Positions 9,216 through 20,111 of a stretch of 64,000 bases of DNA are shown here, in pieces (position 1 is the first letter of the stretch; every line of letters begins with the position of its first letter). The DNA comes from an uncultured Gemmatimonadales bacterium (GTDB lineage: Bacteria > Gemmatimonadota > Gemmatimonadetes > Longimicrobiales > Gaopeijiaceae), in NCBI GenBank assembly GCA_963809895.1, contig CAWELD010000003.1, positions 3,264,001 to 3,328,000 on the forward strand, in the 5' to 3' direction. The position numbers and the translations under genes are program-made. Below the pieces are notes generated by a model. It was not told where the DNA came from, ran no database searches, and was given only the letters and a program-made list of their open reading frames with translations.

Positions 9216-9773
9216 ATGATCCTCCAGGACCAACTCCGCGAGCTCCTTCGGCGCCAGGACGGCTTCTCCGAGCAACTCGGTGACGTCGTTCGGTCGCAAG
9301 GCACGATGGTGGAGCGTCTGGGGTCGGCCGAGACGACGCAGGTGAGCATCCTGAATCGGCTCGATTCTCTCGAGACGACGCAGGTGAGCATCCTGAATCG
9401 GCTCGATTCTCTCGAGACGACGCAGGCGAGCATCCTGAATCGGCTCGACTCTCTCGAGACGACGCAGGCGAGCATCCTGAATCGGCTCGATTCTCTCGAG
9501 ACGACGCAGGCGAGCATCCTGAATCGGCTCGATTCCATGGAGCGGAGACAGGAAGCGGCGTCGGAGGAGTTCGGCCAGCTCGTCCAGTTTCTGGGCCGGA
9601 AGTTCGCGTCGATCGACCGACGCTTCGAGGCAGTCGATGAGCGATTCGTCCGGCTGGAGGTCGGTCTCGAGGGCGTCCGTGACGAGATCCGGATCCTCGC
9701 CGAGGGCATCGGAGGCCTGAACCAGCGCCTGGACCGCTTCATGGAGCGGATGGAGAGACTCGAGGCGAACTGA
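9216..9773 (+). CDS. coiled-coil protein with 14-aa tandem repeats
   Basis: (L)ETTQ(V/A)SILNRLDS x5; heptad-rich tail DRRFEAVDERFVRLE. Confidence 0.8.
   Translation: MILQDQLRELLRRQDGFSEQLGDVVRSQGTMVERLGSAETTQVSILNRLDSLETTQVSILNRLDSLETTQASILNRLDSLETTQASILNRLDSLETTQASILNRLDSMERRQEAASEEFGQLVQFLGRKFASIDRRFEAVDERFVRLEVGLEGVRDEIRILAEGIGGLNQRLDRFMERMERLEAN
9330..9535 (+). repeat. 42-bp coding tandem repeat, about 5 copies
   Basis: GAGACGACGCAGG(T/C)GAGCATCCTGAATCGGCTCGA(T/C)TCTCTC starting at 9330, 9372, 9414, 9456 and 9498. Confidence 0.97.
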
Positions 9774-13173: not shown

Positions 13174-14640
13174 CTATTCCCGCACGCGCGTACCGCACCA
13201 GGCGCTCAGCGCGTCGGCCAACCCCGACTGGCTTCCCTCGCCCACCCACGCCACGTATCCGTCCGGGCGGACAAGCACCGCCGTGGGAGCCTCCACCGTC
13301 CCGAGCACGGGGAGCTCCCACGGGCCCTCGCAGGTGGCCTCGACCGTACGAACCCGATCGGCCCATGGGGAGAGGTCGAAGCCGCTCGCGCCGCCGAGAT
13401 CGAGCAGCACCGGCCGGGCCTCGTGCAGAAGCGTGAAGACCCGCACGGTGCCGTCGTCGGTGCGGAGGTCGAGGTCGGGCATGCGACGGCCCAGCAGCGG
13501 GTGCCCCTCGCCGAGATCGTAGTGGAGGTCGAGACCGGACATCATCCCGGCGAGGTGCTTTCGGGGCTCCTCCATGCCGAGCAGGTCAGCCACGATCTCC
13601 CGCAGGGCCTCGGTGCGGTCGTCGGTGCGGAGCAGCGCGACCTGGGCCATCGTGTCCCTGAGCACACGCGCAGCGATCGGGTGCCGCTCGGCACGGTAGG
13701 TATCGAGCAGACTCTCCGGCGATGTGCCCTTCACGACCTGGGCCAGCTTCCAGCCCAGGTTGACGGCATCCTGCACGCCGATGTTGAGACCCTGCCCGCC
13801 CACCGGGTAGTGCACGTGCGCGGCGTCGCCGGCCAACAATACTCGCCCCTCGCGGTAGCTCGCGGCCTGTCGGGCCATATCGGTGAACCGCGAAATCCAG
13901 GTGGGATTGTGGACGCCGTAATCCGTTCCGAACGCGGCGACGAGCTCCTCACTCAGGTCGCGTAGCGTGGGATCGCCGGTCCGGTCGCGCCGCTGTTCGG
14001 TGACCATGACCCCCACCGGACCCCCCTCCTCCGTCCGGCTCCACGCGTAGATGCCCTGCGGCTTGCGATGGAGGCCCCACTCCGGCTCCTCGGTCACCTG
14101 GACCTCGGCCAGCAGGTTGCTGATCGTGGCATCCCATCCCGGAAACTCGATGCCGGCGGCCTTCCGGATCAGGCTCCGTCCGCCGTCGCATCCCACGAGA
14201 TAATCCCCCCGCAGTGAGGTGCCGTCGGACACCTCCACATCGACGCCGGTATCGTCCTGCGCGAACCCCGTCACCTCGCGTCCGCGATAGATCGTCACCC
14301 GCAACTCGTCGACCCACCCGGCGAGGATGCGCTCGATGTGCATCTGCGGCAGCGCGAGCCCGTAGTGGTGGCGGGTGGGAAAGTCGCTGATGTCCAGAGG
14401 GATCCAGGCGAATCCCGCCACCTGTGCCGTGCTTCCCTCGGAGAGAAAGCGATCGGCGATCCCCCGCTGATCCAGGACCTCGATGGTACGTGCGTGCAGA
14501 CCGCCTGCCCGTCGGCCGGGGAGGTCCTGATCGGGGCGTCGCTCGACGACGGCGACGTCGATGCCCGCCAACGCCAGCTCACCCGCCAGCATCAATCCGG
14601 TTGGTCCTCCCCCAGCAATCACCACCGCGTGCTCGGTCAT
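13174..14640 (-). CDS. rox: FAD-dependent monooxygenase, rifamycin monooxygenase (Rox/Iri)-like
   Basis: VIAGGGPTGLMLAGEL, GLHARTIEVLDQRG, YLVGCDGGRSLIRK, LAGDAAHVHYPVGGQGLNIGVQDAVNLGWKL, GHPLLGRRMPD, LVRPDGYVAWVG; ATG at 14640 with GGGAGG RBS; RAE-like palindrome upstream. The symbol is assigned from family resemblance plus context. Confidence 0.8.
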   Translation of the reverse strand: MTEHAVVIAGGGPTGLMLAGELALAGIDVAVVERRPDQDLPGRRAGGLHARTIEVLDQRGIADRFLSEGSTAQVAGFAWIPLDISDFPTRHHYGLALPQMHIERILAGWVDELRVTIYRGREVTGFAQDDTGVDVEVSDGTSLRGDYLVGCDGGRSLIRKAAGIEFPGWDATISNLLAEVQVTEEPEWGLHRKPQGIYAWSRTEEGGPVGVMVTEQRRDRTGDPTLRDLSEELVAAFGTDYGVHNPTWISRFTDMARQAASYREGRVLLAGDAAHVHYPVGGQGLNIGVQDAVNLGWKLAQVVKGTSPESLLDTYRAERHPIAARVLRDTMAQVALLRTDDRTEALREIVADLLGMEEPRKHLAGMMSGLDLHYDLGEGHPLLGRRMPDLDLRTDDGTVRVFTLLHEARPVLLDLGGASGFDLSPWADRVRTVEATCEGPWELPVLGTVEAPTAVLVRPDGYVAWVGEGSQSGLADALSAWCGTRVRE

Positions 14641-14706
14641 GAAATACCGCCTCCCTTCGTGCAGAATCCGGCGCTTCTTCGGACCATCAAACCTGCATTT
14701 CGACCC

Positions 14707-14725
14707 CGGGCTTGCTGCAAGTCCC
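14707..14725. promoter_or_regulatory. rifamycin-associated element (RAE)-like 19-bp inverted repeat
   Basis: CGGGCTTGCTGCAAGTCCC with core CTTGC-N-GCAAG; 16/19 match to the RAE consensus as I recall it (GGGGCTTGCGGCAAGGCCC); about 66 bp upstream of the rox-like start. Confidence 0.8.
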
Positions 14726-14814
14726 CCGGGGCCCGATACATTAGAACCGAGGGGAAGCCTGGCAGAGCACGCGTGACGCTGCGTCACCTGCGAGGCGTCG
14801 GGAAGGGAGTGTGC

Positions 14815-15722
14815 GTGGTCTCGACTCGCAGTGATTTCATCGCCCCCGACGGGGTTCGCCTCTCCTTCGTGCGAGCAGGCGAGGAAGACCGCACGCTCCT
14901 GGTCCTCAACGGCTTCTACCTCTTCGAAGACTTCTCCTGGCTCGCCGAGAGCCGGACCGTGGTCGGGCTCGATCTCCGCAACCGCGGTCATTCGGAGTGG
15001 ATCCGAGATCCCTCGAAGCTCTCGCGTGGGGTTTGCAGGACGTGGACGACATCGAGGCGATGCGGCGGCACCTCGGGGTGGAGCGAGTCGACCTGCTCGC
15101 GCACTCCTACGCGGGCCTGGTGGCGATGCTCTACGCCATGAACCATCCATCCCACGTCGGTCGCGTCGTCCTGATCAGCCCCATGCAGCCCGACACGGAT
15201 GTGGAATACCCCGAAGCTCTGGCCAATCGCGACGCCATCCTGTCGGAGTTCGTCGCGGCGGCCGGCACGCTGCAGGTGCAAAGGAAGAGCTACTCGCCTC
15301 AGGAATTTTGCCAGGCCTTCTGGGAGCTCCTTCGCGGGCTGTACGTGTTCGATCCAACGGATGCCGGAAAGCTCCACCATTGGGAGGCATGCGATCTCGA
15401 CACGGAGCTCCATTTCATGCGCTACTGGTCCGAGTTTCTCATGCCCTCGATCCAGCGGCTCGACTTCGGCGCCGCGGGAACTGCCGAGGCGACCATGCCG
15501 ATCCTGGTGATCCACGGCACGAAGGATCGGAGCGCGCCCTATGGTGGCGGGCGGGATTGGGCGGGGCTCCTGCCGAACGCTCGCCTGCTTACGATAGAGG
15601 ATGTGGCTCACGCGCCCTGGATCGAGGCGCCGGGTGAGGTCCTGGAGCCTATCCGGACCTTCCTCGACGGTGCGTGGCCGGAGCGGGCCGAGCGCGTGCG
15701 CAGCTTCGCGCCGGCAGGTTAG
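14815..15722 (+). CDS. alpha/beta hydrolase (frameshift near 15030)
   Basis: N-part FIAPDGVRLSF...DLRNRGHS joins C-part DDIEAMRRHLG...AHSYAG...IHGTKD...AHAPWIE across GGGGTTTGC. Confidence 0.85.
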
Positions 15723-19013: not shown

Positions 19014-20111
19014 ATGGCGTCCCTCACCGACGCCCAGCGGAACGCGATCTCACACGTCGAGGGCCACGCACTCGCGATGCGCCCAGAAGCAGACGCGGCT
19101 CTCCGCGAAGCTCTGCGCGCGTACTCCGTGTCCGATGAGGTCTACGGGTCCGCCATGGCGCGGCTCCGACGCGAAGCCCGGGTCGCACTCGCATTTCATC
19201 CGGATCGCCTGACGCGGAGCGGTCGCACCGTCGCTCAGGGGCTCCTCGCGGACGGGCAGTACCGCAATCAGTTCGAGACCGGAGTGTCGAGCGGCAGCAC
19301 GTCCGGCTTCGCAGGGGGACGACGCGACGAATGGGAGCGCTCGCTGTTCGGAGGTCACTACCACCAGGACGGCGTCTCCTGGGAAGAGCGACCCAAGTAC
19401 GGCGCTCTCCAGTTGGTGGACCATCCCGACGGCCCGTGTCCGCGCTTCGGCTCCTGCTACCTGGTGCTCCGCTCGTCGGTGTCGGCGCGGTGCACGTTCA
19501 CTCCGCTGGGTAGCCAGGGGAGTCGCGCCGCCGAGCAGAGCGGCACCCTCGACGTGTTCGAGCCCGTCTTACTCGCACTGGCCCACCATCTGGCCAGCGT
19601 CCCCGATGCCCTCGGGTGCGAGGGACTCGATCTCGGAGAACTCGTCACTCGCATGAGCGCCGCGCTGCCGTTCGCTCCCCCTGGGGGATCCCCCGGACGA
19701 ATGGGACGAGCATTGGACAGCTTCGTCGAAGCACAGGTCCACGGCCCCATCGAGCTCGGCCGTGATGCGGAGAGGCTCGTGGCTGACGCCTCGTTTCGGG
19801 GGACTCACGTTGCTGAGTCCCTCGAAGCGCTGTCATCGACCTACGGCATCCCCCTGAGCTGGCACCCGGGCTTCGCACTCTCTGCCCGAGCGTTCCCAGA
19901 CGAATTCCGAGGCTTCGAGATCCGGCGCGTGGCAGAGCGTGTGGCGGTCGCTGGCAGGGTCGACGCGGCGAGCCTCGGAGCTGGCGAGAACGATTTCAGG
20001 ACGAATCCTGAGGCGTGGCACGGATTCGGCTCGACGTCGGAGATCCTCACGAAGTTCCGGCGCGTGTGGCATGTCCTGGTGCTCCGGGGGACGCCGGCCT
20101 CAGCGAGTTGA
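19014..20111 (+). CDS. DUF3626 domain protein
   Basis: FHPDR, YRNQFETGVSSG, ERPKYGAL, PRFGSCYLVLR, FVEAQVHG, WHPGF, VWHVLV. Confidence 0.85.
   Translation: MASLTDAQRNAISHVEGHALAMRPEADAALREALRAYSVSDEVYGSAMARLRREARVALAFHPDRLTRSGRTVAQGLLADGQYRNQFETGVSSGSTSGFAGGRRDEWERSLFGGHYHQDGVSWEERPKYGALQLVDHPDGPCPRFGSCYLVLRSSVSARCTFTPLGSQGSRAAEQSGTLDVFEPVLLALAHHLASVPDALGCEGLDLGELVTRMSAALPFAPPGGSPGRMGRALDSFVEAQVHGPIELGRDAERLVADASFRGTHVAESLEALSSTYGIPLSWHPGFALSARAFPDEFRGFEIRRVAERVAVAGRVDAASLGAGENDFRTNPEAWHGFGSTSEILTKFRRVWHVLVLRGTPASAS

Follow-up and report, generated by a model that had tools for sequence, protein, structure and literature searches.

The rifamycin-associated element (RAE) lying upstream of a flavoprotein monooxygenase gene in an uncultured member of the Gemmatimonadota is very probably the overlapping -35 pair of two back-to-back promoters of the housekeeping-sigma type, each with a 19-bp spacer. 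This architecture is also supported by mapped transcript starts of M. smegmatis. The palindrome by which the element has been recognized appears to be no more than the middle of a mirror-symmetric double promoter of 53 bp, a feature that the first-pass annotation of this DNA had missed. That an RAE is present in a non-actinobacterial host is well supported. The DNA analyzed here (the window) is a stretch of 64,000 nucleotides, and the features of the locus are listed in Table 1.

Table 1. Features of the RAE-monooxygenase locus, numbered from the first nucleotide of the window
Feature	Position	Strand	Basis
FAD monooxygenase of the PRK06834 family (488 aa), outside Rox; candidate for rifamycin inactivation	13174..14640	-	ORF, profiles, tree
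Ribosome-binding site of the monooxygenase gene, AAGGGAGG	14650..14657	-	Sequence
Predicted gene-facing transcript start (RAE position 43-44)	14682..14683	-	Inferred from geometry and the M. smegmatis P2 start
Gene-facing -10 box, 19 bp past its -35: CAGGTT (weak; pattern in the family CAnAAT)	14690..14695	-	
RAE palindrome, core common to both promoters	14707..14725	none	Sequence match
Opposite-facing -35-like hexamer TTGCTG	14712..14717	+	
Gene-facing -35-like hexamer TTGCAG	14715..14720	-	Sequence; the accessible text of PMC10719064 also states the RAE/sense -35 overlap
Opposite-facing (decoy) -10 box TACATT, 19 bp past its -35	14737..14742	+	
Predicted decoy transcript start and purine-rich beginning	14749..14760	+	Family data; M. 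smegmatis antisense start
Divergent alpha/beta-hydrolase gene, frameshift near 15035-15045	14815..15722	+	Faces the decoy promoter

The monooxygenase ATG is at 14640 and the palindrome ends 66 bp upstream of it, in agreement with the position and the spacing of about 66 bp given in the first-pass annotation. The palindrome has one mismatch to the RAE pattern and is the sole match in the window at ≤1 mismatch (there were no matches in 100 shuffles), and its CTTGCnGCAAG core occurs a single time in the 5.33-Mb genome. It is positioned a short distance upstream of the gene, where it overlaps the -35 box (TTGCAG-19 bp-CAGGTT). When the window and the whole genome were scanned with an RAE matrix built from 63 loci outside the window, this site scored 28.6 and the next best site -8.6; the training loci score 26-107, which places the window copy at the low end of the range. 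A 5' hairpin of the opposite transcript, found at other loci (see below), was not detectable in the window copy (z 0.93). With its low matrix score and absent hairpin, the window copy is worn. The divergent alpha/beta-hydrolase gene is not a conserved neighbour of RAE loci, and its frameshift represents either an assembly error or a pseudogene.

The host had been described as Gemmatimonadota-like and non-actinobacterial, and RpoB, encoded on the same 3.68-Mb contig as the RAE, bears this out: among five genomes compared, its main segment is 71-72% identical to that of two Gemmatimonadota and 54-60% identical to those of Acidobacteriota, Chloroflexota and Arthrobacter. The host polymerase is probably drug-sensitive, because at the main contact positions its rifamycin pocket agrees with that of an E. 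coli-type chain. No arr, rph or helR gene was found with those families in the host genome (95% complete). Most of the window falls in a region of the contig (approximately 3.22-3.32 Mb) with a GC content of 0.62-0.67, compared with approximately 0.69 on both sides, which suggests an acquired region. The window also encodes a 185-aa ORF (9216-9773, plus strand) with tandem 14-residue repeats, a coiled-coil-like character and a weak DUF7310 match, and a DUF3626 protein (19014-20111, plus strand).

The RAE was reportedly first described by Spanogiannopoulos in 2014. In Actinobacteria, it is found upstream of rgt, rph, rox, arr and helR, according to the accessible text of 10.1101/2021.05.10.443488 and PMC10719064, and the latter states that it overlaps the -35 box of the sense gene promoter; this overlap is thus already in print. 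The search pattern used here was generalized from the consensus given in the first-pass annotation and was validated by the genes that it retrieved. In a motif-first set of 80 metagenome loci, returned with their flanks and selected solely by a 16-base core, 63 have a resistance-type gene on the predicted side and none has one on the other side. The genes behind these 63 elements encode HelR (18 loci), Rgt-like (8), Rph (7), Rox (6), Arr (2) and PRK06834 (17) proteins, with mixed loci carrying an rgt fragment together with Rph (2) or with PRK06834 (3). A known resistance type (helR, rgt-like, rph, rox or arr) therefore stands behind the element in 43 of the 80 loci and PRK06834 in 20 of the 80, and from these tallies PRK06834 would be about as common as HelR behind the RAE. 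The HelR, Rph, Rox and Arr seeds score above their NCBIfam cut-offs; for the Rgt seed, Rgt is the best match, at a score below the cut-off. A sample of 301 Actinomycetes genomes contained the RAE core in 116; when 30 of these loci were fetched, 29 led to a resistance-type gene and 27 to helR, rgt-like, rph, rox or arr. The element in the window can be identified as an RAE, as had been claimed, because a pattern that uses the core alone retrieves rifamycin-resistance genes.

Several individual loci differ from the usual arrangement. In L094, two genes stand behind the RAE, first an rgt-like one and next one of the HelR type. Two motif-picked loci (L143 and L157) have the RAE polarity and no recognized resistance gene on the gene side. 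In L276 (genome G895), the RAE core and the opposite -10 box are present without a gene-facing -10 box, upstream of a gene for a 436-aa membrane protein. Four mycobacterial loci (L233, L234, L241 and L245) encode HelD above the family cut-off and have no element in the fetched stretch.

With the palindrome numbered 1-19 (centre at 10), an A at position 32 and a T at position 36 are found on both arms in 70 of the 80 motif-first loci, and in none when the register is offset by any value from -6 to +6. The same pair is present on both arms in 27 of the 30 Actinomycetes loci and in 33 of 37 further metagenome loci (a set of 39 from which two were dropped for short flanks). A and T at these places correspond to the pair of bases that matter most in a -10 box. 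Each -10 box is separated by 19 bp from one half (TTGCnG) of the palindrome, such that the whole is mirror-symmetric and spans 53 bp. Three base pairs are common to the two -35 hexamers, whose TTG triplets are 6 bp apart, on roughly opposite faces of the DNA. The two -10 boxes are not equivalent: the gene-facing box (CAnAAT) has a T at -12 in 5 of 63 loci, while the opposite box (TAnnnT), which is consensus-like, has it in 59 of 63. The -12 T slightly helped to orient the loci, but the orientation of all 63 was borne out by the direction of the gene. Conservation of the palindrome's GGG/CCC arms exceeds what the -35 reading would require. A reading with 17-bp spacers, in which the TATA is two bases closer, was rejected on the basis that the invariant A and T are in the 19-bp register. 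No -10 signal of a conserved upstream sense promoter (P1) was found in the matrix.

Variants of the element were also observed. In Thermoleophilia, a TCATGA-centred 18-bp core with both -10 boxes kept at 18/18 spacing lies upstream of the gene in L006, L024, L030, L044, L061, L076 and about a dozen more loci; this variant would escape an RAE search. One of the Thermoleophilia copies has a perfect TTGACA at positions 6-11. In an Acidimicrobiia-type variant (L029, L067, L068, L073, L074 and L080), the right arm of the palindrome is broken (GCAAGCGAC) and the gene-facing box is shifted.

The DNA ahead of the opposite promoter has features of a short transcription unit. The predicted start of the opposite transcript is purine-rich (76% versus 53%), and its first bases form a hairpin with z below -2 in 41 of 145 loci, compared with 2 of 145 for the sense leader. 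The hairpin arms co-vary: pairing of at least 8/9 with the 3' arm of the same locus is seen in 25% of loci and with that of another locus in 5%. Directly past the hairpin, the U fraction is 0.34, compared with 0.18 further on. We read the opposite promoter as a decoy unit of approximately 30 nt whose termination we infer from these features.

The layout predicts transcript starts at positions 43-44 and -23/-24, on opposite strands and 66-68 nt apart. In the start-site list of M. smegmatis (PMC6448022 Table S2, accessible part), the helR region has high-confidence starts at 2250847 (plus strand) and 2250780 (minus strand, classed as orphan), which are 67 nt apart. No neighbouring gene explains the minus-strand start, because the gene upstream of helR is on the plus strand. 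The chance of a start falling in a 5-nt window is approximately 0.002 on average (about 6,090 starts in roughly 7 Mb) and is higher in intergenic DNA. Placement of the element on the M. smegmatis map relies on the spacing given in the accessible text of a review (PMC10719064) and on start codons at position 74-75 in relatives. In uninduced cells, the antisense start does not exceed P2 in strength (41 and 56 reads versus 42 and 65) in the same dataset (PMC6448022, accessible part), although short antisense RNAs may have been lost from these data. A third start in the region, at 2250785 (plus strand), is 10-30 times stronger and is not explained by the layout (PMC6448022, accessible part). While the better -10 box, the hairpin and the U enrichment of the family speak for a strong antisense unit, the M. 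smegmatis coverage in the part of that source available is equal for the antisense start and P2, and the window copy has no hairpin.

Mapped starts near other genes are less clear. At a distance of 97 nt upstream of M. smegmatis arr there is a minus-strand start (1290484), with a plus-strand 5' end of the processed type 66 nt from it (PMC6448022, accessible part); the minus-strand start also serves a divergent neighbour. In M. abscessus, the accessible text of PMC4974804 gives a minus-strand start at -21 before arr, 2 nt off the prediction, with a printed flank that belongs to another region, and its start list has none near helR on either strand. Both of these arr starts could simply be those of the divergent neighbour.

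The first-pass annotation described the gene product as a Rox-like monooxygenase. It is an FAD monooxygenase, with PF01494 (FAD-binding) and PF21274 (aromatic-ring hydroxylase C-terminal) domains, and like Rox, RIFMO and Iri (PDB 5vqb, 5kow) it is a group A flavoprotein monooxygenase, with 45-48% identity to Rox proteins and the same promoter element; the assignment to Rox itself did not hold. The protein scores 901 bits over its full length against NF005303 (PRK06834; cut-off 625), compared with 485 against Rox (cut-off 800; Rox controls 907-935) and 352 against Iri (cut-off 950), the latter two being the NCBIfam rifampin monooxygenase families NF033145 and NF000343. In a quick tree of 79 proteins, which leaves out 11 loci without a full ORF, PRK06834 and Rox form separate clades with SH-aLRT support of 100 each; sisterhood of the two was neither recovered nor rejected (AU test, p 0.48; quick tree, 30 rows). 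Membership of Rox was ruled out by the sub-cut-off scores and the separate clade.

The window enzyme matches the rifampin monooxygenase structure 5vqb with an E-value of 2e-115 and is as near to the polyketide hydroxylase structure 4k2x as to Rox. It is identical to RIFMO at 8 of the 14 rifampicin contacts listed in the accessible text of PMC11375879 and differs at the other 6, with Rox R213 replaced by Gly. Contacts F74, F256, P283 and G285 are commonly present as well among 35 unrelated hydroxylases; H46 is found in 31/34 PRK06834 proteins, 8/8 Rox proteins and 16/35 other hydroxylases. The pocket residues common to the window enzyme and Rox thus appear to be mostly generic. An AlphaFold model of the enzyme is of low confidence (pLDDT 62). 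NF005303 is named "hypothetical protein", and PRK06834 relatives number at least 8,000 at an E-value of 1e-50 or better (mixed with related hydroxylases), with generic hydroxylase names only among the matches listed. Given the genomic context, we consider it likely that PRK06834 enzymes act on rifamycins, and the flavoenzyme probably hydroxylates and inactivates these drugs as Rox does; the window enzyme would be a candidate for a new clade of rifamycin monooxygenases.

When loci were instead collected by homology to PRK06834, the element was found in 51 of 80 on the basis of the flanks alone (29 of 80 were without it), including 19 of 31 non-actinobacterial loci; 20 gene-body controls score at most -9.5. 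The gene is patchy, being present in 7 of 41 genomes searched (its own included) and in 2 of 19 same-genus relatives, at 61-69% identity; homologues reach 79-81% identity among the matches listed. Five of six gene-bearing relatives keep the element. Because the gene is patchy and its Gemmatimonadota copies are scattered through the quick tree, repeated horizontal transfer of the gene is the history to which these data point.

Allowing two mismatches, the 53-bp pattern was found in 13 of 201 host-phylum genomes, where it stands before PRK06834 in nine, before an rph-like gene in three and by chance in one. As a reversed control hits approximately 12 of 201 genomes at this stringency, the 13 hits were judged by their adjoining gene. 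Two of the nine PRK06834 genes (L297 and L299) are frameshifted and lie behind intact elements. At one mismatch, the pattern was found in 10/151 Chloroflexota, 1/151 Acidobacteriota and 1/151 Myxococcota genomes (controls 0, 0 and 1, respectively), with the Myxococcota match and one of the Chloroflexota matches being seed genomes. In the Chloroflexota and Acidobacteriota, the gene behind the element is PRK06834, rgt-like or rph-like at all 12 loci. A tally made with a loose 12-base pattern in 351 host-phylum genomes was rejected: the pattern did not outperform its reversed control, and of 30 loci 27 turned out not to be elements. Hosts of the element include Gemmatimonadota, Chloroflexota, Acidobacteriota, Pseudomonadota and Myxococcota. 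The suggestion that the RAE circuit extends beyond Actinobacteria is borne out by the three gene types that the element precedes in non-actinobacterial hosts. The first-pass annotation had set this wider range against horizontal movement with rox as alternatives; both seem to be true together, except that the travelling gene is not rox.

The leaders of these genes often retain traces of rgt. In a host-phylum genome, an intact RAE, a full rgt-like gene and PRK06834 stand in a row (L252:234-1454, minus strand, and downstream). Remnants of the rgt 5' end were detected by tblastn in the leaders of 8/87 loci, and in more by reading, and in one locus (L057:290-2368) rgt is split, with its 5' part on one side of the PRK06834 gene and its 3' part on the other. 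Remnants of rgt were also observed upstream of rph (L146 and L155). It is as if RAE-rgt leaders repeatedly capture other genes. The combination of RAE and monooxygenase is best explained as a mobile one-gene rifamycin-defence cassette.

The traces of rgt raise the question of whether the monooxygenase is only a passenger at or behind an RAE-rgt locus, with another aromatic substrate, or a copy that does not respond to the drug. The split rgt gene, the remnants in many leaders, the protein's equal nearness to a polyketide hydroxylase and the worn state of the window element would all fit this possibility, which is compatible with any of the sensing mechanisms considered below. We regard it as improbable: the element survives while the rgt remnant decays away, across proteins that are 61-77% identical, it is kept by nearly all of the gene-bearing relatives, and the motif-first loci in which a known resistance type follows the element make up more than half of that set.

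With regard to sensing, the architecture suggests that RNA polymerase itself senses the drug. Polymerase is our inferred sensor because a single mobile gene keeps the element across phyla without a regulator, and polymerase is both the reader common to these hosts and the target of the drug. Thesis work reportedly implicates polymerase in RAE sensing. As the first-pass annotation had noted for the window, none of the neighbouring genes encodes a regulator, and no family of neighbour genes is common to more than 5 of 80 RAE loci; we lean, moderately, towards there being no dedicated regulator. A precedent exists in B. subtilis, which senses rifampicin when drug-bound polymerase is trapped on a busy antisense promoter of helD (PMC12802891, accessible text). 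For the RAE, we propose that the opposite promoter, with its better -10 box, would make a very short hairpin RNA and so act as a high-traffic decoy, while the gene-facing promoter, with its non-consensus -10 box, would be nearly off. At low drug concentrations, the decoy would trap rifamycin-bound polymerase in a long-lived open complex, and this complex would help a drug-free polymerase, positioned on the opposite face of the palindrome, to start transcription at the gene-facing promoter. The induced PRK06834 flavoenzyme would then hydroxylate and inactivate rifamycins. The trapped polymerase was chosen as the activator because the two TTG triplets, 6 bp apart, are on roughly opposite faces. 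That a drug-trapped polymerase on the decoy switches on the gene promoter without a dedicated regulator is, in our estimation, only slightly short of an even proposition; the exact step, in which the trapped complex helps to fire the gene promoter, is somewhat more tentative, and the complete proposal, in which such a portable mini-gene activates the back-to-back polymerase and controls the very large PRK06834 family of rifamycin monooxygenases, is more speculative again. With the -35 boxes overlapping by 3 bp, two polymerases may not fit together, in which case the trapped polymerase could repress instead of activating. We also considered whether abortive RNAs from the trapped polymerase might prime the gene promoter, and found nothing in support of this.

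Two other mechanisms were weighed against activation by a trapped polymerase. MerR-type regulators activate promoters by twisting the spacer, and a dedicated dimeric regulator might similarly bind the palindrome and bring the 19-bp spacer into register in response to the drug or to a stalled polymerase, leaving the opposite promoter as a relic or as a by-product of the symmetry. Such a regulator is the standing proposal in print (accessible text of PMC10719064, PMC12802891 and 10.1101/2021.05.10.443476), and a perfect palindrome with conserved outer arms and 19-bp spacers is what it would be expected to bind and act upon. We nevertheless think it unlikely. None is linked to RAE loci, and it would need to be nearly universal because the element is kept across many phyla, five of them non-actinobacterial, on a scattered mobile gene; moreover, it leaves the conservation of the second -10 box, the T-12 bias of that box and the hairpin unexplained.

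The remaining mechanism, less probable still, also makes polymerase the sensor and works by relief of interference as at B. subtilis helD: traffic from the decoy would hold the gene promoter off until arrest by the drug lifts it. The two systems would have much in common. The helD/pps rifampicin alarm (PMC12802891, accessible text) likewise has two opposed promoters upstream; its antisense promoter, with a spacer of 19 bp, is the better of the two, gives a short, terminated RNA and is proposed to trap drug-bound polymerase. The B. subtilis promoters, however, are convergent, separated by a 39-bp gap and without a palindrome, whereas those of the RAE are divergent with a shared -35 core. Simple relief of collision does not fit the RAE because its promoters point away from each other and have their -35 boxes in common; arrest of a polymerase there should make the block at the shared core worse instead of lifting it, and in B. 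subtilis a steric overlap of the promoters abolished induction (PMC12802891, accessible text). Activation by the trapped polymerase thus remains the reading that we prefer.

The window element resembles the actinobacterial RAE in being a 19-bp palindrome that overlaps the -35 box of the gene promoter, and differs in its non-actinobacterial host and in the clade of the monooxygenase. Published accounts, as far as their accessible text goes, give the palindrome and sense promoters, while a mirror-image opposite promoter with a hairpin RNA was found here. Within the accessible literature, our search found no description of an opposite RAE promoter or of non-actinobacterial RAEs, and no paper that mentions PRK06834.

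The RAE controls intrinsic rifamycin resistance in many actinomycetes. How it senses the drug was called mechanistically unresolved in January 2026, and the RAE genes were set apart, in the accessible text of PMC12802891. The double-promoter architecture makes this stated question directly testable, as the mirror-image promoter allows an experiment involving a few bases to separate the three mechanisms. A sensor read by polymerase alone, if true, would explain why the element moves between phyla along with single genes. PRK06834 may be an unstudied family of likely rifamycin destroyers, and if its members do inactivate rifamycins, then the environmental resistome has been undercounted.
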